From NCBI GenBank assembly GCA_013202715.1, contig JABMRF010000023.1, positions 2,327 to 66,326 of the forward strand: a stretch of 64,000 bases of DNA, given 5' to 3'. The notes beneath the pieces are model-generated. The model ran no database searches. It was not told the DNA's origin and saw nothing but the letters and a program-made list of their open reading frames with translations. This DNA is from Candidatus Kuenenbacteria bacterium. GTDB taxonomy: Bacteria; Patescibacteriota; Patescibacteriia; UBA11705; JABHMO01. Positions 8,226-59,079 of this stretch are shown here, in pieces; the stretch's first letter is position 1, and each line of letters begins with the position of its first letter. Both the position numbers and the translations under genes were made by a program.

Positions 8226-9410
8226 ATGAAGAAAATTATCAAAATCATAATCGTCATAATACTGATCGGACTGATCGGCTGGTTTTCTGTCGAAAAATTC
8301 AAGGATTTTCAAAAAAATAAAGAAGTACGCGCAGCCAAGCAGGCCATAGATGATAAAATAGATCAATTGATTACCGCGCGCCAAAATGCTGATGTAAACG
8401 CAGAAGACGATCCATTTGGCGATAAAGATAGTCTAAAAATACTTTTACTTGGACTCGATTCTCGAATTGGTGACAAAAACGGTCATTGTGATGCAATTCA
8501 ATTTATTGAAATAAACAAAAAAACAAACCAAATCAATATTACCGCCGTTCCACGCGGAACGTATTCCCCTCTTCCGGAATACAGCCCTATTCCAAGTGAG
8601 TACTATATTTCAAAGGCATGTGAAGTTGGCGGACTGGAATATGGGATTGAACAGATTGAAAAAATTCTTGGTCAAAAAGCTGACTATCTGGTTATGGTTG
8701 GCTTTTCAGAAGCAATCGGAATCTTTCGCAATCTAAATCTACCAACAACTGAGACTCTGCAATGGCTTCGAAATCGTCAGAGCTTTGCGATTGGCGAACC
8801 GCAACGGGCGCATAATCATTCGACTTTTATTAAACAAATGATTGTCAAATTCGCACCAAAAAATAATTCTAAGCTGGACACCACTTGGCAATATTTAATT
8901 TACAAGTTACTAAAAACTGACTTATCATTCACACAAGTCAGATTCATTGCCGACACCGTTCAAAGCATAAAACCTAACGAGTATCCGCAGCGGATTCAGA
9001 CGCACATGAGACCAAGCTATGAAATACAAGAAATTAAGTACGACGAAGTCGCTCCTGGCGAACAAGTCAAAAAGCTGCTTGGCTCAATTGTAGATATTTT
9101 GCCGGAAAATGATTATAGCAACGAGAGCTTGGCCGACATCCAGGGTAGATTATTAAAAAAAATAAACCAAAACATTGATGACAAGGAATTCGTACGCTGG
9201 GCATATGACAATCATCTATGGTTACAAATCGAAGATGATCAAGTTCGGCAAGAAACTCACTTTTCTTTATTAAACAAACATCTAGAAAGCTATGATTCAA
9301 ATGAGGACAAAGAACTTCTGATTAGTGAATATATCATTGCTATGCAAGCGCTGAATTTAGTCGAATGGAAAGACAAAGGCAAGGAACTGTTATTTGAACT
9401 TCAGAAATAA
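8226..9410 (+). CDS. LytR-CpsA-Psr (LCP) family cell-envelope protein
   Basis: N-terminal TM anchor, then ILLLGLDSR...DAIQFIEINKKTNQINITAVPRGTY, which is typical of the LCP domain. Confidence 0.6.
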   Translation: MKKIIKIIIVIILIGLIGWFSVEKFKDFQKNKEVRAAKQAIDDKIDQLITARQNADVNAEDDPFGDKDSLKILLLGLDSRIGDKNGHCDAIQFIEINKKTNQINITAVPRGTYSPLPEYSPIPSEYYISKACEVGGLEYGIEQIEKILGQKADYLVMVGFSEAIGIFRNLNLPTTETLQWLRNRQSFAIGEPQRAHNHSTFIKQMIVKFAPKNNSKLDTTWQYLIYKLLKTDLSFTQVRFIADTVQSIKPNEYPQRIQTHMRPSYEIQEIKYDEVAPGEQVKKLLGSIVDILPENDYSNESLADIQGRLLKKINQNIDDKEFVRWAYDNHLWLQIEDDQVRQETHFSLLNKHLESYDSNEDKELLISEYIIAMQALNLVEWKDKGKELLFELQK

Positions 9411-9418
9411 GCTCCGCC

Positions 9419-9447
9419 TTGACTTTCTCAATTATTTGCGATAGTAT
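9419..9447 (+). promoter_or_regulatory. Sigma70-type promoter (TTGACT-17-TAGTAT) upstream of tRNA-Gln
   Basis: ttgact at 9419-9424, 17-nt spacer, tagtat at 9442-9447. Confidence 0.5.
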
Positions 9448-9519
9448 ATTATTAGTTGTTTTGAGTTTTTATTTCAAAATTTAATTATTTATTGTTCATT
9501 CTTCATTGTTAATTATTAT

Positions 9520-9593
9520 TCGGGGATCGTCTAATGGTAGGACACCTGGTTTTGGTCCAGGCAATCTAGGTTCGATTCCTAGTCCCCGAGCCA
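9520..9593 (+). tRNA. tRNA-Gln (anticodon TTG)
   Basis: Manual fold gives acceptor TCGGGGA/TCCCCGA, D-arm GTCT/GGAC, anticodon stem CCTGG/CCAGG with loop TTTTGGT (anticodon TTG), T-arm CTAGG-TTCGATT-CCTAG and an encoded CCA. Terminator hairpin at 9667-9699. Confidence 0.85.
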
Positions 9594-9839
9594 TGAACCA
9601 CTCGCTTCTTTTAAGGAAGGGGGTGGTTTTTGTTTCTAAAGAAGCTCGGGTTCATGGCAAGCAAAAAAAAACGATGAACTTATGTTCGTCGTTTTTTTTT
9701 ATTCTACAATCCTTGTCGACCATGCTCGTCATAATTTTTTGTTTTTTGCTATGAGACAATGTTTGCTTTTAAAAATCTTGACGAGTGGGGATAACATTTT
9801 TCTGGAAGAGAACGAAATAAATTGGCACAATGGTAATAT

Positions 9840-10382
9840 ATGTATAATGGCAGAGAACGAAAATTAAACCGTGCTAAATCTATTGATTATTCATTGCCGG
9901 GATTTTATTATTTAACGTTTTTAACAAAAAATCGGCTTGAATGGTTTGGAGAAATTAAAAACAACAAAATGGTTTTGAATGAATGGGGAAAAATTGTTTG
10001 CCGTCAATTATTATGGCTGGAACAACAATATGATCATGTGCGTTTGGATGAATGGATCATAATGCCAAATCATGTACATGTGATCGTCGAAATCCTTCAC
10101 GCATCGAACCCCACGCCTGTAAGGAACGGTCGCGACCGTTCCTTACAGGCGTGGGGAGACCGTGACCGTCGAGTACAGGAAAAAAAGAGAAAACCCATCC
10201 CCGAATTAATCGGTGCATTAAAAACCACATCATCCAAATGGATACATCGGAATGGTTTGTTTGAATTCAAATGGCATAAATCATATCATGACCGTGTCCT
10301 GCGCAGTCAATCCGAATTGGAACACGCTCGCTGGTATATTCGCACCAATCCTGGTCGCTGGCATCGCGACCGCAACAATTAA
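9840..10382 (+). CDS. tnpA: IS200-like / REP-associated tyrosine transposase (HUH), adjacent to tRNA-Gln
   Basis: HUH motif IIMPNHVHVIVEI and C-terminal WHKSYHDRVLR...WYIRTNPGRW, as in RAYT/IS200 TnpA. Contains an in-frame palindromic insert (see repeat 10112..10160). Confidence 0.8.
   Translation: MYNGRERKLNRAKSIDYSLPGFYYLTFLTKNRLEWFGEIKNNKMVLNEWGKIVCRQLLWLEQQYDHVRLDEWIIMPNHVHVIVEILHASNPTPVRNGRDRSLQAWGDRDRRVQEKKRKPIPELIGALKTTSSKWIHRNGLFEFKWHKSYHDRVLRSQSELEHARWYIRTNPGRWHRDRNN
10112..10160. repeat. REP-like 44-bp perfect palindrome embedded in-frame in the transposase gene
   Basis: ccacgcctgtaaggaacggtcgcgaccgttccttacaggcgtgg. A related copy, aggaacggtcacgaccgtcccct, lies at 30776-30808. Confidence 0.7.
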
Positions 10383-10453
10383 TCCCGCCGTTAGCGGGAT
10401 TAAAAAAGAAAGCTCTTTCCAAAAAGCTTTCTTCACTTCATTATTTTCAACTA

Positions 10454-11836
10454 TTACTTTATAATCACAAAATCTTTCTTAATTCCCATTTCTACCATTA
10501 TGAGATCATCCCAGGCATATCTGTCTTTACCTTCCAAAACAAGATCCAGATTACGTTCAAACCAGGGCTGAAGATTTTCGTAGCCGTGATTTGAAATAAT
10601 ATAACGCACAGAGCTTTGTAATTTGTAATAGTCGTCTTTCGGAACTAGCTTTTCACCGGTAGAAATTTTGTCGTCAACTAAAATCTGATGTTTTTCCAAT
10701 AATGCCTGCAGTTGATTTAATTGAGAGTTTTTCGAAATTTCAAACATTCCCCACGGGCCGAATAAACTTAGAATCAAAATCACGCAAATTGAAATTGGAA
10801 TAATTTTAATGGAAGCTTTTTTCCAAATCGCAAACAATAGGCCGATTCCCAAAAGCCAAATACCCATTAAGACAACCAAGTATCTGCGCTCAGTCACACC
10901 ATAATCATTGATCCTGATCTTAATCGCCCAGAACAAAATTCCGGTCAGAGGAACAATGGCAATAAACAGCGCGCGATAAAATATCCGTAGCCATTTACTT
11001 TTATTTTTGTACGCCCAAATAATTAAACAAGTAATAATTCCGAAAATCGAAAAACCAATAATTAACGAAGCGACAATCCCCTTTGGCCATTCACCTGTAA
11101 ATAAAATTTTTATTGAATACACATAAACGATCAAAAAGTACAAACAAACGATTGGGACTAACAAATACTTGCCAATTGCCTTGATCCAAACCGGAGGCTC
11201 TGACTTCTCTGCCAAAGATCTTATTTTCTTCGGAACAAATAACAAGAAAAAATGCACAGCAGCAAATACTACTAAAATAATCCAGATTGTGAAAAATATA
11301 TTTTCGGAGAGATTGAAAACAAACAACTTTGAGACGGCCAGCAAAGCAATTGACAGAGCGCCAAACACAAAGCCGGAAATGGCGCCCGTGATCACAAACA
11401 TAATAGCCAGATTTTTTACAAAATGCCAAAAATACTCGTCATTATTTTTGGTTAAATAGCCGATAAATAAAACACTTAAGCAAAAACAGCCGAATAGTAT
11501 CATGTAACGCGCAACATCGCGAGTCAATTCATCATTGTTCACACCGGGTAAAATAAAATAATACAATCCCAAGAAAACAATTCCTGTAGCGCGAACCAAC
11601 CACTTTTGCCACAACTTCCAATTTTGCTGTTCCAAAAATAAAGCTATTGCTAAAAATAACAGTATTCCCAAAAGGCAAAGCAAAAACAGCTTCATCATAA
11701 CCGGATATTCATATTCAAATAAGACCCAGCAGACACCGAGAATTGTTCCGAAAAGTGAACTTAGGCTGACCAGTGGAAACCGGAAAACTGTGCTGATTAA
11801 ATTTTGTAGATTGAAGTTTTGTTTCAGGGTAGTCAT
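10454..11836 (-). CDS. Large polytopic membrane protein (hypothetical)
   Basis: 460 aa with more than 10 predicted TM helices and a soluble C-terminal ~90 aa. Confidence 0.55.
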   Translation of the reverse strand: MTTLKQNFNLQNLISTVFRFPLVSLSSLFGTILGVCWVLFEYEYPVMMKLFLLCLLGILLFLAIALFLEQQNWKLWQKWLVRATGIVFLGLYYFILPGVNNDELTRDVARYMILFGCFCLSVLFIGYLTKNNDEYFWHFVKNLAIMFVITGAISGFVFGALSIALLAVSKLFVFNLSENIFFTIWIILVVFAAVHFFLLFVPKKIRSLAEKSEPPVWIKAIGKYLLVPIVCLYFLIVYVYSIKILFTGEWPKGIVASLIIGFSIFGIITCLIIWAYKNKSKWLRIFYRALFIAIVPLTGILFWAIKIRINDYGVTERRYLVVLMGIWLLGIGLLFAIWKKASIKIIPISICVILILSLFGPWGMFEISKNSQLNQLQALLEKHQILVDDKISTGEKLVPKDDYYKLQSSVRYIISNHGYENLQPWFERNLDLVLEGKDRYAWDDLIMVEMGIKKDFVIIK

Positions 11837-17944: not shown

Positions 17945-18008
17945 AACTAGTCAATAGTCTAGAGTCCGTTAGGTAACTTTTGACTTTTGACCCTAGACTC
18001 AAGACTAA
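17945..18008. repeat. Palindromic intergenic element (MITE-like family; modules agtctagagtc / gacttttgac)
   Basis: actagtcaatagtctagagtccgttaggtaacttttgacttttgaccctagactcaagact. Same family as 22603-22676, 36988-37060, 48925-48999 and 53565-53600. Confidence 0.7.
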
Positions 18009-22602: not shown

Positions 22603-22676
22603 TAGTCTAGAGTCTTGAGTCAAAAGTCTAGAGTCAATTCACTACTTTTGACTTTTGACCATTGACTTTTGACTTT
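22603..22676. repeat. Palindromic intergenic element (MITE-like family)
   Basis: tagtctagagtcttgagtcaaaagtctagagtcaattcactacttttgacttttgaccattgacttttgac. Confidence 0.7.
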
Positions 22677-22729
22677 AAAAAACGAAGGATTTCCCCCGTT
22701 CTTAAATTTATTAATAATACTTGTTAATC

Positions 22730-29653: not shown

Positions 29654-29791
29654 ATAGCAAATAAATTAAGAATAATCTAAATCCAGTTTAATCAAATTTA
29701 AGGCAAAAGTCAAATTCACCCTGCCAACGGCGAGAAAAAAAATGCCCCGCCTTTTGAGAAAGACGGGGACAAAGGTTCAAGGAATTAAGGA

Positions 29792-30520
29792 TCAACTGCG
29801 CACAGGCTCCCATGCATTGTCTGTTTCGCCTGAAGGACGAGGCATACGAAAGAACACGCGCCGGATGAATTTCCATCCGCGATTGAACGTAAAGGCATTT
29901 ACCATCCACCCATCACCATGCCACTCAACGTAAACCGTGCGAAGCACACCGGTATTGTCACGAACATAAAAAATATTCGGTTGCACATTCGTAAGAAGAG
30001 CCCCTTCGTCATCTTTCCCTTTCTGCAAAAGCATGAGATACCAAATCTCGGAAAGAGTAGTTTCTGCCATTTCCGCGCCACCGAGCTCTGACAGAATCTC
30101 TTCATCGTCCGCATCCCGCGTCAACGTTGAGTAGGCCAGAATCGACCCATCGAAAGAACCGACATCCATCGAGCCGAACCACGACTTGAAACTTTCACGA
30201 ACGTCGCAAATCCTCACGCGTCTACTGTACCATGGAATATCCTTCTTGAAACAATCGAGCGAGTTGAACGTCTCTTCGGTGGCAGGCACGGAGACCAACC
30301 CCACCTCCATCGGAACATGAGCAAATAATACCTTCTTCTTTTTCTCCGCTTCATCGAGCAATTCGATAAAGTTAGCCTCCGCAATCATGACCTGTAGCCA
30401 CCTGACCACATCCGCAAGCTTACGCGTTTTGGACATGATCATTTCCAGAATTGACGCTTGTTGTCCGACAAAAGTCTTGTACAGATTCTTTTCTTTGCCA
30501 CTACCCATGGCGTCCTCCAT
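29792..30520 (-). CDS. Hypothetical protein on a GC-rich (~52%) island
   Basis: Local GC is ~52% versus ~38-40% for the flanks. The product has no recognisable motif. Start set at MEDAMGSG; the track ORF extends further 5'. Confidence 0.45.
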   Translation of the reverse strand: MEDAMGSGKEKNLYKTFVGQQASILEMIMSKTRKLADVVRWLQVMIAEANFIELLDEAEKKKKVLFAHVPMEVGLVSVPATEETFNSLDCFKKDIPWYSRRVRICDVRESFKSWFGSMDVGSFDGSILAYSTLTRDADDEEILSELGGAEMAETTLSEIWYLMLLQKGKDDEGALLTNVQPNIFYVRDNTGVLRTVYVEWHGDGWMVNAFTFNRGWKFIRRVFFRMPRPSGETDNAWEPVRS

Positions 30521-30775
30521 TGAAAGAGCTACAAACCCGGCGACTATGAATCGCCGTTTTCCCCACCTGCCGATATGGCAGATTATCAAGGGAAAAGATC
30601 GCTGATTATTTATAATAACAATCAAGGATCTTTCCCTTTGATTTGACTGAGAACTATATCACACTCATTACCCTTTGTCAACCCCTACATCGGCGGGATC
30701 AATAGTATCGAAACACTCCCCTCTTTCTCCGTCAACGACCTCGAGCATAGCCGAGAGGTCAAACAAAAAAGCACT

Positions 30776-30808
30776 CAGTAGGAACGGTCACGACCGTCCC
30801 CTACTGAA
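30776..30808. repeat. REP-like palindrome, second copy of the motif inside the 9840 transposase
   Basis: cagtaggaacggtcacgaccgtcccctactg. Confidence 0.6.
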
Positions 30809-30893
30809 TGCTTTTTCTATATCTAAATTGTCTTTATGCTTTAATCTTTATTCTTTTGTCTTTCTTTGCTCTTTGCCCCTTGGTCCTTGCTCC

Positions 30894-31904
30894 TTATTTC
30901 CTATTGTACCACTGCTCATAATAATCTTTGTAATCCCCAGACTTAATCCTCTGCCACCAACCACCATTATTCGCATACCAATCAATTGTCTGCTTGATCC
31001 CCTGCTCAAAATTCATTTTTGGTTGCCACCCTAGCTCGGCTTGAACCTTGTGTGAACGAACTGCGTAACGCCGATCATGACCCGGGCGATCCTTTACATA
31101 TTCAATCATTTCTTCACCAAATCCCATACCCTGTAAAATTGCCATTGTTAATTCGTAATTTGATTTTTCAGAATCTCCGCCAATACAATAAGTATGACCA
31201 ATCCTTCCACCACGAATAACTAAATCAACCGCTTCGCAATGGTCATCAACGTGAATCCAATCACGAACGTTCTTGCCGTCTCCGTAAAGTGGGACTTTTT
31301 TTCCTTCCATTAGATTCGTAATGAAAAGTGGAATAACTTTTTCTGGAAATTGAAACGGGCCATAATTATTTGAGCAATTTGAAATTGTAATCGGCAAGCC
31401 ATAAGTGTGATAATATGCTCGCACCAAATGATCTGATGCGGCCTTGGAAGAAGAGTACGGACTTTTCGGGTCATATGGAGTTTCTTCATGAAATGCTTTG
31501 TTTTCATCTTCCAGTGATAGTGAACCAAAAACCTCATCTGTAGAAACATGGTGAAATCTTTTGTTCCCAAGCTGACGAGCAACTTCGAGAAGTGAATGAG
31601 TTCCAAGCACATTTGTCCGAACAAAAGAAAATGGATCCAAAACTGATCGGTCGACATGAGACTCTGCCGCGAAATGCACAATAATGTCACAATCAACAGC
31701 AATATGCGCTACCAATTCGGAATTTAAAATATCCCCCTTCACAAACTTATAGTTTGGGTGATTTTCAAAGTCTTTTAGATTTTCCAAATTACCCGCATAA
31801 GTCAAACTATCCAGATTGATAACCTGGTCCTGCGGATATTTATTCAAAACATAGCGGATAAAATTCGATCCGATAAATCCTGCTCCTCCGGTCACTAATA
31901 GTTT
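30894..31904 (-). CDS. rmlB: dTDP-glucose 4,6-dehydratase
   Basis: MKLLVTGGAGFIGSNFIRYV...Y..SK and C-terminal ...DRRYAVRSHKVQAELGWQP. Confidence 0.92.
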   Translation of the reverse strand, partial: KLLVTGGAGFIGSNFIRYVLNKYPQDQVINLDSLTYAGNLENLKDFENHPNYKFVKGDILNSELVAHIAVDCDIIVHFAAESHVDRSVLDPFSFVRTNVLGTHSLLEVARQLGNKRFHHVSTDEVFGSLSLEDENKAFHEETPYDPKSPYSSSKAASDHLVRAYYHTYGLPITISNCSNNYGPFQFPEKVIPLFITNLMEGKKVPLYGDGKNVRDWIHVDDHCEAVDLVIRGGRIGHTYCIGGDSEKSNYELTMAILQGMGFGEEMIEYVKDRPGHDRRYAVRSHKVQAELGWQPKMNFEQGIKQTIDWYANNGGWWQRIKSGDYKDYYEQWYNRK

Positions 31905-31987
31905 CATATTTTTTCTAATCATTATTCACAACTTACTAATTACAACTTACTACTTTATTTCAAATAATGCAAATCAATTTTTGACAA

Positions 31988-36979: not shown

Positions 36980-36987
36980 CATATATA

Positions 36988-37060
36988 TAGTCAAAAGTTT
37001 TAAGTCAATAGTCTAGAGTTGCTTACAACTTTTGACTTTTGACTTTTGACTCTAGACTTG
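36988..37060. repeat. Palindromic intergenic element (MITE-like family)
   Basis: tagtcaaaagttttaagtcaatagtctagagttgcttacaacttttgacttttgacttttgactctagact. Confidence 0.7.
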
Positions 37061-48924: not shown

Positions 48925-48999
48925 TCAAGTCAAAAGTCTTGAGTCAATAGTCTAGAGTCGTCTCACAACTCTTGACTTTTGACTTTTGACTCTAGACTG
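48925..48999. repeat. Palindromic intergenic element (MITE-like family), overlaps the dnaE stop
   Basis: caagtcaaaagtcttgagtcaatagtctagagtcgtctcacaactcttgacttttgacttttgactctagactg, with a perfect inverted agtctagagtc/gactctagact. Confidence 0.75.
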
Positions 49000-53539: not shown

Positions 53540-53568
53540 CAGACATATATGTCTATTTTTTTAACTTT
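53540..53568. terminator. Bidirectional terminator hairpin
   Basis: aaaaaaaaacagacatatatgtctattttttt. Confidence 0.6.
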
Positions 53569-53600
53569 CGACTTTTGACTCTAGACTCTAGACTATTCCA
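53565..53600. repeat. Half-copy of the MITE-like palindromic element
   Basis: ctttcgacttttgactctagactctagact. Confidence 0.5.
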
Positions 53601-56522: not shown

Positions 56523-57500
56523 TCACCCAAGCCATTTTTCTAATACATCCCCTTTTGCTTTCGCATTACGCCAAATCACCTGACGCTTCAGCTTTAACTG
56601 TTTTCTATTTCTTAGCACATCTCCCAAAGCTCGCAGAGTACCGAATTCGAAAACCAAAATATAGAAAAACTTTGTAAGTTCGTAAAAAAATACCCGCCAA
56701 CTGAATTTCGGAAGACATTTAATTAAAAAATATAAATGATTTCGATATGAATAAAAATTAGCAAACTTAGATTTTTTTCGCCGGTTTTTGGCAACCTGAA
56801 TTTTTGTTAATTTATCAACTGTAGTAGTAACGGTCCGGTCATGATAAGCAATAGCTGCTGGGACTTTCCAGGCTCTCCAACCACCAATTTGCAATCGAAA
56901 AGCCAAATCAACATCTTCCTTGTAACTAAAAAATGATTCGTCAAAAAACTCTTTTTGGTAGATAATTTCTTCCAACGCCTTGCGTCTATAAAATGGAATA
57001 GCGCCCGACACACCAAAAATTTCCTCAGCAAGATTATGCTGGCCTTCGTCAACTTCCCCACTGCCGAGATCAACCACTCTGAAATTTTTAAAACTCTTCA
57101 AGCCCAATGAATCAATATAATTAGTTTGCTGACCGTCCTGCAACCGTAAAATCTTTCCGGTCGCAGAGCCAGCCATTGGATTTTTGTCCATAAACTCAAC
57201 CATTTTTTCCAAAAAATCTTTTGCCAAAACAACATCCTGATTCAGGCAAACAACATAGTCTGATCTTGTCCAGTGAATCGCCTGGTTATGCACCTTGGCA
57301 AAACCAAGGTTTTCTTTGTGCTTGATTACCTTCAAATGCGGGAATCTCTCATTGATCAGCTCCAAAGTCTTGTCATGAGACCCATTATCAAGAATAATAA
57401 TTGAATAGTCTGTAAATGTCTGAGCCAAAACGCTGCGCAGACAATTTTCAATGTAGCGTTCACCGTTCCAGGTAACTAGATTTATAGAGACTTTAGGCAT
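56523..57500 (-). CDS. Family 2 glycosyltransferase
   Basis: VSINLVTWNGERYIENCLRSVLAQTF...IILDNGSHD...LNQD. Confidence 0.85.
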   Translation of the reverse strand: MPKVSINLVTWNGERYIENCLRSVLAQTFTDYSIIILDNGSHDKTLELINERFPHLKVIKHKENLGFAKVHNQAIHWTRSDYVVCLNQDVVLAKDFLEKMVEFMDKNPMAGSATGKILRLQDGQQTNYIDSLGLKSFKNFRVVDLGSGEVDEGQHNLAEEIFGVSGAIPFYRRKALEEIIYQKEFFDESFFSYKEDVDLAFRLQIGGWRAWKVPAAIAYHDRTVTTTVDKLTKIQVAKNRRKKSKFANFYSYRNHLYFLIKCLPKFSWRVFFYELTKFFYILVFEFGTLRALGDVLRNRKQLKLKRQVIWRNAKAKGDVLEKWLG

Positions 57501-57523
57501 AGATTTTGTAGATTGCCAAGTTA

Positions 57524-57569
57524 GCGTATCTTGTAAGGGTTCAAAATTTTGAACCCTTACAAGATACGC
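57524..57569. terminator. Perfect 19-bp-stem hairpin between GT2 genes
   Basis: gcgtatcttgtaagggttc aaaatttt gaacccttacaagatacgc. Confidence 0.6.
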
Positions 57570-57591
57570 TCGCTTGGCTCGCTAACTCGCA

Positions 57592-59079
57592 TTACCTACT
57601 TTTTGGAGTTACAAAAAACCCTAAATGATATTTCTTCGGTAGCATCAGACGCGTTTGCGCTTCAGTTGCCGGAATTGAACCGAAGATAATTAATGTTATC
57701 GGTAATAATATCCATTGCAAAAACATGACCAGATACTTCCAACGAGGATGACCCTCTGGCCTCGGAGGTAAAATAAACAAACTGATGATTGCGGAAAATA
57801 GTATTCCAACCATCGCTGCAGCCATCAGCCATTCCAAAACAAAAGGTGCGTTTTGAACAATTACTGATGAGGACTCTTCTCCTCGACCGGCAACCCAGAG
57901 CGGTAATCTACCCAAAACGAAAATCAAAATCGGCGCAGTGGCCCAGGAGTACATTCCTTCTGTTAAGTTCCAAGTGTATTTTAACTTTTTGTACCACGGA
58001 ATTTCCTTGTTCTTGTGAAACTTATTCATCATGTACGGAAAATGCTCCACGCCCCAAGCCCATCGTCTTTGCTGTTTGTAAAGATTTTTAAATCCTTTCC
58101 AGTAATCTTTATCCATCACCGTGTCCATTGAAACTGGGATATACATTGGTTCCACTGCATATTTGCCGCCATATTTAAAAAAGCATTGTAAAAAGATACG
58201 AGAATCATCAGTCACAATATCCTTTTGCCAAAAACCTACATCAGCCAGCGCTTTAAAACTCATTGAATGAGAACTGAAAGTATATAATCTTTCCGGCCGC
58301 ATCAAATCCATTAACAACCAAAAAATTGTTCCAAAGGCAGTGACACGCATCGCTGCTGGCGCGTCCCAAATATTGTTATTATAATTAACTGCCGGCTGAT
58401 ATGAAACTTTCGTTGGATTTGGATGAGTTAAATATCGATAAGTTAGATGCGCAAAATATTGTTTGTGTACGCAGGTATCACTATCAAAATAAGAAACAAT
58501 CAAATCTTCATAATCATATCCGAGCTCGTTAATAAATTTTTGCGACTTGTGCCCCATCCAGTTGGCGTTCGCACCCTTGCCTTTCAATTCGCCCGGCAGG
58601 CCGTCCGGATGAATAGTGAATTTCAATTTGTGAAACTTATCGCCAAATTCTTTTTTTATCTGCGCCGCTTTGGGCCGAAAATCTTTTTCAATTCTTCCCT
58701 CTCCACCGAGAATCACAATCATCTTATCGAGCGGGTAGGAACTATTACAAAGACTGTTAAAAGTTGTGCGCAAGACTTCAATCGGCTCCCCGTAAGTCGG
58801 CAAATAAATAATATGAAATTTTTTGTCCCAACCGGGAATTTTTTTCACTCTTTCCAGCCAATCAATGGCCTCTGTTTTTTTGTATTTGAAATATGAGTAA
58901 CTGCCATAAAAAATAAAGTGCAATACTCGGAGTAGCCAGTACAAATCAAAAGCGATTATAAAGTAAATAACCCAGAGAGGCTTTATAAATGACAAAACAA
59001 TGGACAATACAAAAGTCGTCCAGATCAAAAGACCTGGAATTGTCTCTAAAATTCTTAACCTTGTGGTTCGTTTTTCCAT
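57592..59079 (-). CDS. Membrane-embedded processive family 2 glycosyltransferase (cellulose/chitin synthase-like, QxxRW)
   Basis: N- and C-terminal TM helices, DSD/DxD, and the QQRRWAWG motif typical of processive beta-glycan synthases. Confidence 0.75.
   Translation of the reverse strand: MEKRTTRLRILETIPGLLIWTTFVLSIVLSFIKPLWVIYFIIAFDLYWLLRVLHFIFYGSYSYFKYKKTEAIDWLERVKKIPGWDKKFHIIYLPTYGEPIEVLRTTFNSLCNSSYPLDKMIVILGGEGRIEKDFRPKAAQIKKEFGDKFHKLKFTIHPDGLPGELKGKGANANWMGHKSQKFINELGYDYEDLIVSYFDSDTCVHKQYFAHLTYRYLTHPNPTKVSYQPAVNYNNNIWDAPAAMRVTAFGTIFWLLMDLMRPERLYTFSSHSMSFKALADVGFWQKDIVTDDSRIFLQCFFKYGGKYAVEPMYIPVSMDTVMDKDYWKGFKNLYKQQRRWAWGVEHFPYMMNKFHKNKEIPWYKKLKYTWNLTEGMYSWATAPILIFVLGRLPLWVAGRGEESSSVIVQNAPFVLEWLMAAAMVGILFSAIISLFILPPRPEGHPRWKYLVMFLQWILLPITLIIFGSIPATEAQTRLMLPKKYHLGFFVTPKSR

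Follow-up and report, generated by a model that had tools for sequence, protein, structure and literature searches.

An in-frame palindrome in a probable subclass 2.4 RAYT gene of Candidatus Kuenenbacteria is a double-foot REP hairpin shared with homologous genes of many phyla

How can a long perfect palindrome reside within a protein-coding gene without breaking it, and how did it get there? This question is raised by a gene at positions 9840 to 10382 of a 64,000-nt stretch of DNA (from here: the window) of a Candidatus Kuenenbacteria bacterium (Patescibacteria; assembly GCA_013202715.1, contig JABMRF010000023.1, positions 2,327 to 66,326 of the forward strand). We report that its product is very probably a single-domain HUH/Tyr endonuclease, a REP-associated tyrosine transposase (RAYT, also TnpA_REP) of TnpA_Y1 subclass 2.4 (Bertels group 4), and that the gene carries within its reading frame the cognate "double-foot" repetitive extragenic palindrome (REP). 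An initial annotation, made from the sequence alone, had proposed a REP/RAYT system here, for which family, motif and fold matches as well as the published description of subclass 2.4 now speak. It had also stated that the hairpin "has invaded" the transposase gene. This is contradicted by the presence of the hairpin at the same position in relatives and in 55 of the 70 homologous genes, spread over many phyla, which makes it a lineage-wide, co-inherited feature. The coordinates of all features are collected in Table 1.

The palindrome had previously been described as 44 bp long. The 44-mer at 10111-10154 is indeed perfect (0 mismatches, matched by 0 of 100 shuffled sequences), but the true length is 48 bp. 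The gene's own frame reads it as N90-PTPVRNGRDRSLQAW-G106 (NPTPVRNGRDRSLQAWG, residues 90-106), and the frame is unbroken, as had been claimed. The palindrome consists of a 28-bp core, GTAAGGAACGGTCGCGACCGTTCCTTAC, which extends from V94 to the first base of Q103 with its foot in codon phase 0, and, to its left and right, of 10 further palindromic bp not shared with other copies. The fold of the palindrome as single-stranded DNA has -30.1 kcal/mol (z = -8.9). Further copies of the 48-mer, or of any of its 12-mers, were not found in the 64-kb window.

The closest relatives show which part of this structure is old. In a DNA alignment of the window with P0002 (65% identity, locus L201), P0003 (62%, locus L202) and L001, the 28-bp core was present at the homologous position in all four loci. 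Hence, the core is inherited and only the extension is local to the Kuenenbacteria genome. The window core agrees in length, register and position with the GTAGGG...CCCTAC cores of homologues, and its central 20 nt are identical to those of L001, L004 and L202. P0002 and the window are set apart by one compensatory stem pair (A...T to C...G). The foot of the window copy differs symmetrically from those of L201, L202 and L001 (GTAGGG...CCCTAC to GTAAGG...CCTTAC); because these three have GTAG at the homologous site, GTAA is, as judged from the alignment, the derived variant. Among the four loci, only the window copy has the 10 extra palindromic bp per side and an addition of 33-42 nt on the 3' side of the palindrome (10157-10195). 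Within this addition, parts of the REP arm are repeated (GACCGTGACCGTCG, 10158-10171).

Homologous genes were surveyed by a scan of one genome per species, which yielded more than 505 relatives; the best 80 loci were kept. They belong to Patescibacteria, Bacteroidota, Chloroflexota, Cyanobacteria, Gammaproteobacteria, Planctomycetota and other phyla. Hairpin counts refer to the 70 genes in which both the HUH and the W motif were located. A strong hairpin between these two motifs was present in 55 of them, in 50 distinct versions and across many phyla, while about 20% of the homologous genes had no strong hairpin in this loop. Typically, it is a perfect 28-29-bp palindrome with a loop of 0-1 nt that starts with GTAG(G/A)G, ends with C(C/T)CTAC and has a variable interior. 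Hairpin density was 4.6/kb in the loop, compared to 0.19/kb in the rest of the open reading frames (ORFs) and 0.31/kb in DNA outside the loops. The loop density thus is about 24 times that of the rest of the ORF, and double-foot hairpins are enriched about 70-fold in the loop.

The variable interior retains its pairing. At stem positions 6-14, 98-100% of the pairs were of the Watson-Crick type, with 3-4 pair types at each position. Among 28 gapless 28-mers, 97.2% of the cells were paired, a percentage that is partly given by construction as the hairpins had been picked by a hairpin finder; the informative result therefore is that differing sequences occupy one homologous site. In this set, 11 of the 14 pairs were altered on both sides, double-change cells numbered 103 compared to 24.9 after shuffling, and the covariation score reached 0.751, compared to 0.220 after shuffling and 0.12-0.17 with slid partners. 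At pairs 5-14 there were zero one-sided (G.U-type) states. The zero-length loops, the perfect symmetry and the lack of G.U states argue for a constraint at the DNA level, on both strands, and not for an mRNA structure. The symmetric changes of both arms suggest selection or a templated correction within the palindrome, an idea taken from template switching at quasipalindromes.

Reading frames provide a second line of evidence. The GTAG foot is read in codon phase 0 (Val-Gly...) or in phase 1 (...Arg-Asp/Arg-Gly...) but never in the phase in which TAG is a stop codon, and the resulting peptides are unrelated between the phases (VGNGRDRSLQ vs RRDVACNVST). Because both stop-free frames are used, it is the DNA hairpin that is conserved, not the peptide. 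In an alignment of the window protein with 40 homologues (41 sequences), the consensus following the HUH motif is VGNGRDRSL. The palindrome-encoded residues are thus conserved in homologues, which runs counter to an insertion in the window gene. The back-translation of V-G-N-G-R-D-R-S-L-Q is GTAGGGAACGGTCGCGACCGTTCCCTAC, a palindrome too.

Moreover, the hairpin type tracks the protein lineage, and hairpin and protein are co-inherited. REP-arm similarity correlated with the similarity of the core protein (Mantel r = 0.24, a value that 0 of 2000 permutations reached), and identical REP arms were found between proteins of only 46-70% identity, at times across phyla. The same REP occurred within 1 kb of the in-gene copy in 22 of the 55 loci, usually some 300 nt away both upstream and downstream, immediately outside the ORF, an arrangement called REPtron; in 25 of the 55 loci no other REP copy was seen in the fetched flanks. 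The core type of the window (GGAACGGTCGCGACCGTTCC) was found 133 times in 120 metagenome stretches. Thirteen of these copies lie in RAYT loops and 5 are no more than 500 nt away from a RAYT gene; the majority sit on contigs without a detectable RAYT. Hence, this core type belongs to a real dispersed REP family. No contigs of the same organism were among the metagenome matches obtained by megablast.

Three further observations concern REP copies at other loci. Perfectly palindromic extensions past the feet, private to each copy, occur in many double-foot REPs (L015, L020, L033, L053 and others, as well as 10109-10118 and 10147-10156 of the window). Such an extension measures at least 4 bp in 25 of 133 REP copies, with 0.5 expected and a maximum of 19 bp, which suggests either that REPs inserted into hairpins already present or that the palindrome grew by templating. 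In Fluviicola chungangensis (L072, 2034-2207 and 11066-11233), two paralogous subclass 2.4 genes located 9 kb apart and with 70% core identity share the in-gene REP core and differ in their private palindromic flanks. The C-terminal tails of P0009, P0011, P0017 and P0019, and those at L206 positions 1992-2021 and L207 positions 2069-2088, are REPs translated in other frames (for example CKERSRPFP and VGNGRDRSVP); in these cases a downstream flanking REP was absorbed into the ORF.

The assignment of the protein to the RAYT family is based on profile, motif and fold comparisons. The initial annotation of an HUH transposase agrees with a Pfam match to Y1_Tnp (PF01797; 28 bits, cutoff 23), in which only the N-terminal half was aligned, and an NCBI entry 100% identical to the 180-aa product is named "transposase". 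Several of the 118 homologues of the protein are labelled RayT by the Joint Genome Institute. When the family profile was compared to the PDB, the sole sequence match was 4ER8, E. coli TnpA_REP (E = 1.6e-7). The AlphaFold2 model (mean predicted local distance difference test score, pLDDT, 85) has the predicted Y1 fold; Foldseek matched it to ISDra2, IS608 and 4ER8 with probability 1.00, and the match with the lowest root-mean-square deviation was 4er8_A (2.4 A, TMq 0.56). One RAYT copy of this type is present in the 64-kb window.

The TnpA_Y1 classification was provided by Quentin, Siguier, Chandler and Fichant (BMC Genomics 2018, PMC6006769), whose subclass 2.4 is RAYT group 4 of Bertels et al. 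2017. Its proteins have a median length of 194 aa, the HuH motif NH[IFV]H, the W motif WQ, the Y motif YIxNNP and an insertion between beta3 and alphaC of variable length and sequence; they are associated with "long" or "double foot" REPs that have 5' GT[AG]G and 3' C[TC]AC, and occur in a mean of 1.5 copies per genome (PMC6006769). REPs in frame within the gene, situated between its HuH motif and its Y motif, were described as a unique and predominant feature of this subclass (PMC6006769); in-gene REPs go unmentioned in Bertels 2017 and Corneloup 2021. A GT[AG]G tetranucleotide on the 5' side at the foot of a G+C-rich stem is also a defining trait of GTAG-type REPs in general, together with dispersal over the genome in numerous copies, most of them extragenic (Nunvar 2010; Di Nocera 2013, PMC3733652; Quentin 2018, PMC6006769).

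The window protein resembles this description in its HuH motif (N77-H78-V79-H80), the conserved W, the class-2 signature Y---NP, its length of about 190 aa, the beta3:alphaC insertion and the in-frame double-foot REP. Its Y motif reads YIRTNP, with T replacing the first N of YIxNNP. Judged by motif position, Y166 is the presumed catalytic tyrosine, and N170, at the metal-ligand position Y+4, the putative third metal ligand. In an alignment to 4er8 based on hidden Markov models (HMMs), the W motif aligns with the residues W94/Q95/E100/H101/R104 of E. coli TnpA_REP that contact the GTAG guide (Quentin 2018, PMC6006769; Messing 2012, PMC3479197). In the structural model, residues 86-119 lack secondary structure, with a pLDDT of 50-54 at residues 91-110, and are flanked by the strand 78-85 and the helix 120-137; across the protein alignment this region varies in length and sequence. 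As modelled, the loop corresponds to the beta3:alphaC insertion of subclass 2.4.

The locus differs from the published description in its host, as PMC6006769 lists Cyanobacteria, Bacteroidetes and "various phyla" and the window is from Patescibacteria (Ca. Kuenenbacteria), in having a 48-bp palindrome and in details considered below. It is the subclass 2.4 arrangement published in 2018, here from a phylum not highlighted in PMC6006769. With E. coli TnpA_REP (subclass 2.2; 4ER8; PMC3479197) it shares HUH, the single Tyr and the equivalents of W94 and R104. Sequence identity is about 14%, and the E. coli enzyme carries an inhibitory tail at its C-terminus and lacks a beta3:alphaC insertion. Its REPs are imperfect, bulged, single-foot and exclusively extragenic, flanking the gene in bacterial interspersed mosaic elements. 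The TnpA proteins of IS200/IS605 elements (IS608, ISDra2; subclass 1.1) share the Y1 HUH fold and the recognition of a DNA hairpin plus guide tetranucleotide on single-stranded DNA; they differ by the motif Y---Q, high copy number, subterminal hairpins at the left and right ends and an often associated tnpB, none of which was found for the window gene. Its membership in this group was rejected on the basis of Y---NP, the lack of an NCBIfam IS200 match, of flanking end hairpins and of a second copy in the window. Finally, intragenic REPs and Rickettsia palindromic elements (Di Nocera 2013, PMC3733652) likewise add an extra peptide to proteins as in-frame palindromic repeats in permissive regions. 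Those are scattered over unrelated genes at non-homologous sites, whereas the type seen here occupies one homologous loop of a repeat-recognising enzyme and is conserved across phyla.

Several points weigh against reading the locus as a subclass 2.4 RAYT with its cognate REP, in addition to the part that the hairpin finder has in the pairing percentage. The NCBIfam equivalog NF047646 (REP_Tyr_transpos) matched with 44.5 bits (E = 1.4e-11), which is below its curated cutoff of 80, a match that is split because of the loop insertion. The invariant W145 is followed by H146, compared to the subclass consensus WQ. Among 101 clear homologues, 9 likewise have H at this position, and the Q marks a consensus without being absolute. 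The in-gene foot is GTAA...TTAC instead of the canonical GT[AG]G. Besides the in-gene hairpin there are no GTRG-footed hairpins in 8801-11400, and no REP flanks the gene within 1 kb; REPs within 1000 nt on either side were reported for the "large majority" of genes only, not for all (PMC6006769). The REP-like elements in the 64 kb number three, so that the abundance typical of REPs is not seen in the window. In addition, the steps of recognition and cleavage given below for subclass 2.4 would be an extrapolation from subclass 2.2 of E. coli.

We propose that the palindrome would be the cognate double-foot REP of this enzyme lineage, with a G+C-rich stem and a GT[AG]G-type foot on the 5' side of each strand. 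By analogy to E. coli TnpA_REP, the hairpin would extrude when the DNA becomes single-stranded, and the protein would bind the stem and the foot tetranucleotide. Foot bases 3 and 4 would then pair with the dinucleotide to be cut. In E. coli TnpA_REP, A3 and G4 of the foot pair with the cleaved CT dinucleotide (Messing 2012, PMC3479197); this would be TT in the present case if GTAA acts as GTAG does with CT. The copy within the gene may persist as the disordered surface loop tolerates any open peptide and recognition by the gene's own product would add a constraint.

The residue following the invariant W and the fourth base of the foot appear to covary. Where the foot of a WQ gene could be scored, GTAG...CTAC was present on both sides in 33 of 37 and a non-G fourth base in 4 of 37; among the WH genes, 7 of 8 show a fourth base other than G in one foot or in both (Fisher p = 5e-5, uncorrected for phylogeny). 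GTAA...TTAC together with WH occurs in the window and in L020 and L031, both from Chloroflexota; the WHKSFYD lineage (L205-L207) has GTAG...GTAC throughout, L209 has GTAC...CTAC adjacent, and L208 is the exception among the WH genes. As these lineages are not independent (there are about five WH lineages), we treat the association as a hypothesis and not as a result. In the crystal structure of E. coli TnpA_REP, Q95 together with R21 is inserted between guide G4 and G5 (Messing 2012, PMC3479197).

The reading preferred here attributes the persistence of the REP to the tolerance of the loop together with the constraint that recognition by the gene's product would impose. Alternatively, the in-gene REP could be a selected, self-recognised cis element instead of a tolerated passenger, either an autoregulatory site or a protected "master copy" by which REP and RAYT stay co-inherited and co-evolving and extragenic REPs can be reseeded after transfer. 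We consider this possible but rather unlikely. There is precedent in HUH Rep proteins with a nick site in their own gene (phiX174 gene A, pT181 repC). Over 20-28 nt, genes with about 50% protein identity have the same REP, which surpasses the surrounding coding sequence in conservation; it is kept in the window and in the 25 of 55 loci lacking another copy in the fetched flanks; its arms remain perfectly symmetric through lineage-specific changes; and the foot appears to follow the guide-contacting residue. Equal conservation would, on the other hand, be expected from homogenisation against enzyme-recognised extragenic copies or from a constraint like theirs, and the approximately 20% of genes without a REP manage without it. 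Quentin et al. held the in-gene insertion to be probably neutral and peripheral (PMC6006769).

A role at the RNA level, with a stable mRNA stem-loop that throttles translation or triggers cleavage so that the nuclease is kept low, is improbable in our view. IS200 tnpA is repressed by mRNA structure, which would be a parallel, and as RNA the palindrome folds with -47.4 kcal/mol (z = -8.4). REPs are also commonly regarded as elements that work in RNA form (Di Nocera 2013, PMC3733652). These arguments are opposed by the loops of 0-1 nt, the perfect palindromes, the lack of G.U at 10 covarying stem positions and the GTAG feet on both strands. An intrinsic terminator within the gene was rejected, as no T-run follows on the 3' side of the palindrome and a terminator scan does not flag it, and so was a known RNA family, the Rfam matches in the window being two tRNAs only.

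We give still less credence to a recent local invasion, in which a mobile REP inserted into the window gene and the frame was kept by chance; for the core it is refuted. REPs do land in unrelated genes (Di Nocera 2013, PMC3733652), the offset between HUH and REP varies from 13 to 147 nt, and two REPs are present in the loops of L011, L014, L023, L049, L060 and L080. The homologues without a strong hairpin and the window-specific additions around the core would also fit an invasion. Nevertheless, relatives of 62-65% identity and distant phyla have the core at the homologous position, the REP type follows the protein tree and the enrichment is confined to one loop. Least of all is VGNGRDRSLQ the selected object with the palindrome as a by-product of its codons: roughly the 30 closest homologues do conserve this peptide, but the view is refuted by the frame use and covariation of the homologous hairpins, as the same hairpin type in the other frame gives unrelated peptides (RRDVACNVST, GRDRSRPVPT), variants change in pairs that restore pairing (N/R to T/L), the region is predicted to be disordered and the same DNA is found extragenically.

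Table 1. Features of the 64-kb window discussed in the text, with positions counted from its first nucleotide
Feature	Position	Strand	Remarks
RAYT / TnpA_REP-like gene, TnpA_Y1 subclass 2.4 type	9840-10382	+	180 aa, intact ORF
HUH motif codons, H78-V79-H80 in MPNHVHVIV	10071-10079	+	H78 and H80 invariant in 41 aligned sequences; strand E78-85 in the model
Variable disordered loop, residues ~86-119, between HUH strand and next helix	10095-10196	+	holds the REP
Perfect palindrome, 48 bp	10109-10156		REP plus 10-bp palindromic extension per side, private to this copy
28-bp double-foot REP core	10119-10146		V94 to first base of Q103; foot in codon phase 0
W motif, W145-H146...D151-R152...R155	10272-10304	+	from HMM alignment to 4er8
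Y motif, Y166-I-R-T-N170-P171	10335-10352	+	I167, N170 and P171 invariant; Y166 at least 90% conserved
Extragenic degenerate REP-like hairpin, 51 nt, imperfect	30766-30816		core GTAGGAACGGTCaCGACCGTCCCCTAC at 30778-30804
Third REP-like palindrome, 64 bp, 94% complementary	57515-57578		perfect 48-bp part at 57523-57570; 28-bp core GTAAGGGTTCAAAATTTTGAACCCTTAC
Other ("first") Y1 gene, 185 aa	3397-3954	-	motifs NHYH, YILGNP
Near-orphan ORF, annotated as 238-aa hypothetical protein	29792-30625	-	

Two further REP-like elements are located in the window. The related copy previously noticed near 30.78 kb, AGGAACGGTCaCGACCGT at 30780-30797, is real; it is degenerate, has GTAG...CTAC feet and lies inside the 51-nt hairpin (-18.6 kcal/mol, z = -9.4). 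The core is nested in a terminator-like hairpin with A-run, stem and T-run, 78 nt past the stop codon of a GDP-mannose-4,6-dehydratase-like gene (30894-31922, minus strand) and just upstream of the promoter-like site for the ORF at 29792-30625. It occupies the expected terminator position of the dehydratase-like gene. The third element was overlooked in the initial annotation. It is intergenic, between the ORFs 56523-57500 and 57592-59079 (both minus strand), and shares with the in-gene copy the GTAA...TTAC feet and the lengths of the core and of the extension, while the core sequence is different.

A "52% GC island" at 29.7-30.6 kb, taken together with the hairpin copy next to it as a possible sign of horizontal acquisition, was not borne out. 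Positions 29700-30600 have 48.6% GC, with 50.2% in the highest internal 500-bp window, and other parts of the window are just as GC-rich, namely 7.2-7.5 kb with 48.5% and 1.4-2.4 kb, which even exceeds it, with up to 50.6%. The near-orphan ORF in this region has the top GC content at third codon positions of the window (0.54, z = 2.4), closely followed by the ORFs at 1338, 6101 and 7368. A promoter-like site (30681-30653, 11 of 12 matches) and a terminator-like hairpin (29768-29745) of its own accompany this ORF, which has no Pfam or NCBIfam match. Among 5.8 billion clusters it has 3 homologues, one being itself and the other two distant. A defence or mobile island was rejected, as the GC content is not unique and PADLOC gave no matches for this ORF and two neighbouring ORFs. 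The ORF possibly is of foreign origin, but nothing links the hairpin, which sits at a terminator position, to its acquisition.

The tRNA-Gln gene mentioned in the initial annotation (9520-9593, plus strand) is indeed located 246 nt upstream of the RAYT ORF. An association with tRNA genes was rejected, since 0 of 60 homologous loci had a tRNA within 3 kb of the gene; the adjacency is incidental. The other Y1 gene of the window matches NCBIfam REP_Tyr_transpos with 74 bits (cutoff 80) and has a GC content of 29%. It has no in-gene hairpin or palindrome and no convincing flanking inverted repeats. With 19% identity it was rejected as a paralogue of the RAYT gene, and there is no second paralogue in the window. 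A separate family of intergenic repeats (17950-17998, 22604-22680, 36986-37057, 48928-48997, 53564-53586) consists of inverted repeats of about 70 bp made of tandem heptamers (ACTTTTG / AGTCAAA, TTGACT-like units). Their pattern gave 22 matches with 2 expected and is unrelated to GTAG-type REPs.

In itself, this locus means little: it is a further instance, in a streamlined genome of the candidate phyla radiation, of an arrangement published in 2018. For annotation, conserved peptides of the "VGNGRDRSLQ" type are translated REPs, and these depress profile scores, so that Pfam and NCBIfam matches are partial or stay below the cutoff. More generally, the locus bears on the question of the purpose of RAYTs and REPs and of their long-term pairing. 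An enzyme with its own recognition hairpin in the reading frame, kept symmetric across phyla, is a natural system for studying RAYT-REP co-evolution. The covariation of the Q/H residue with the foot base provides a testable specificity rule; if true, the enzyme of this Kuenenbacteria genome would be expected to have TT in place of CT as its cleaved dinucleotide.

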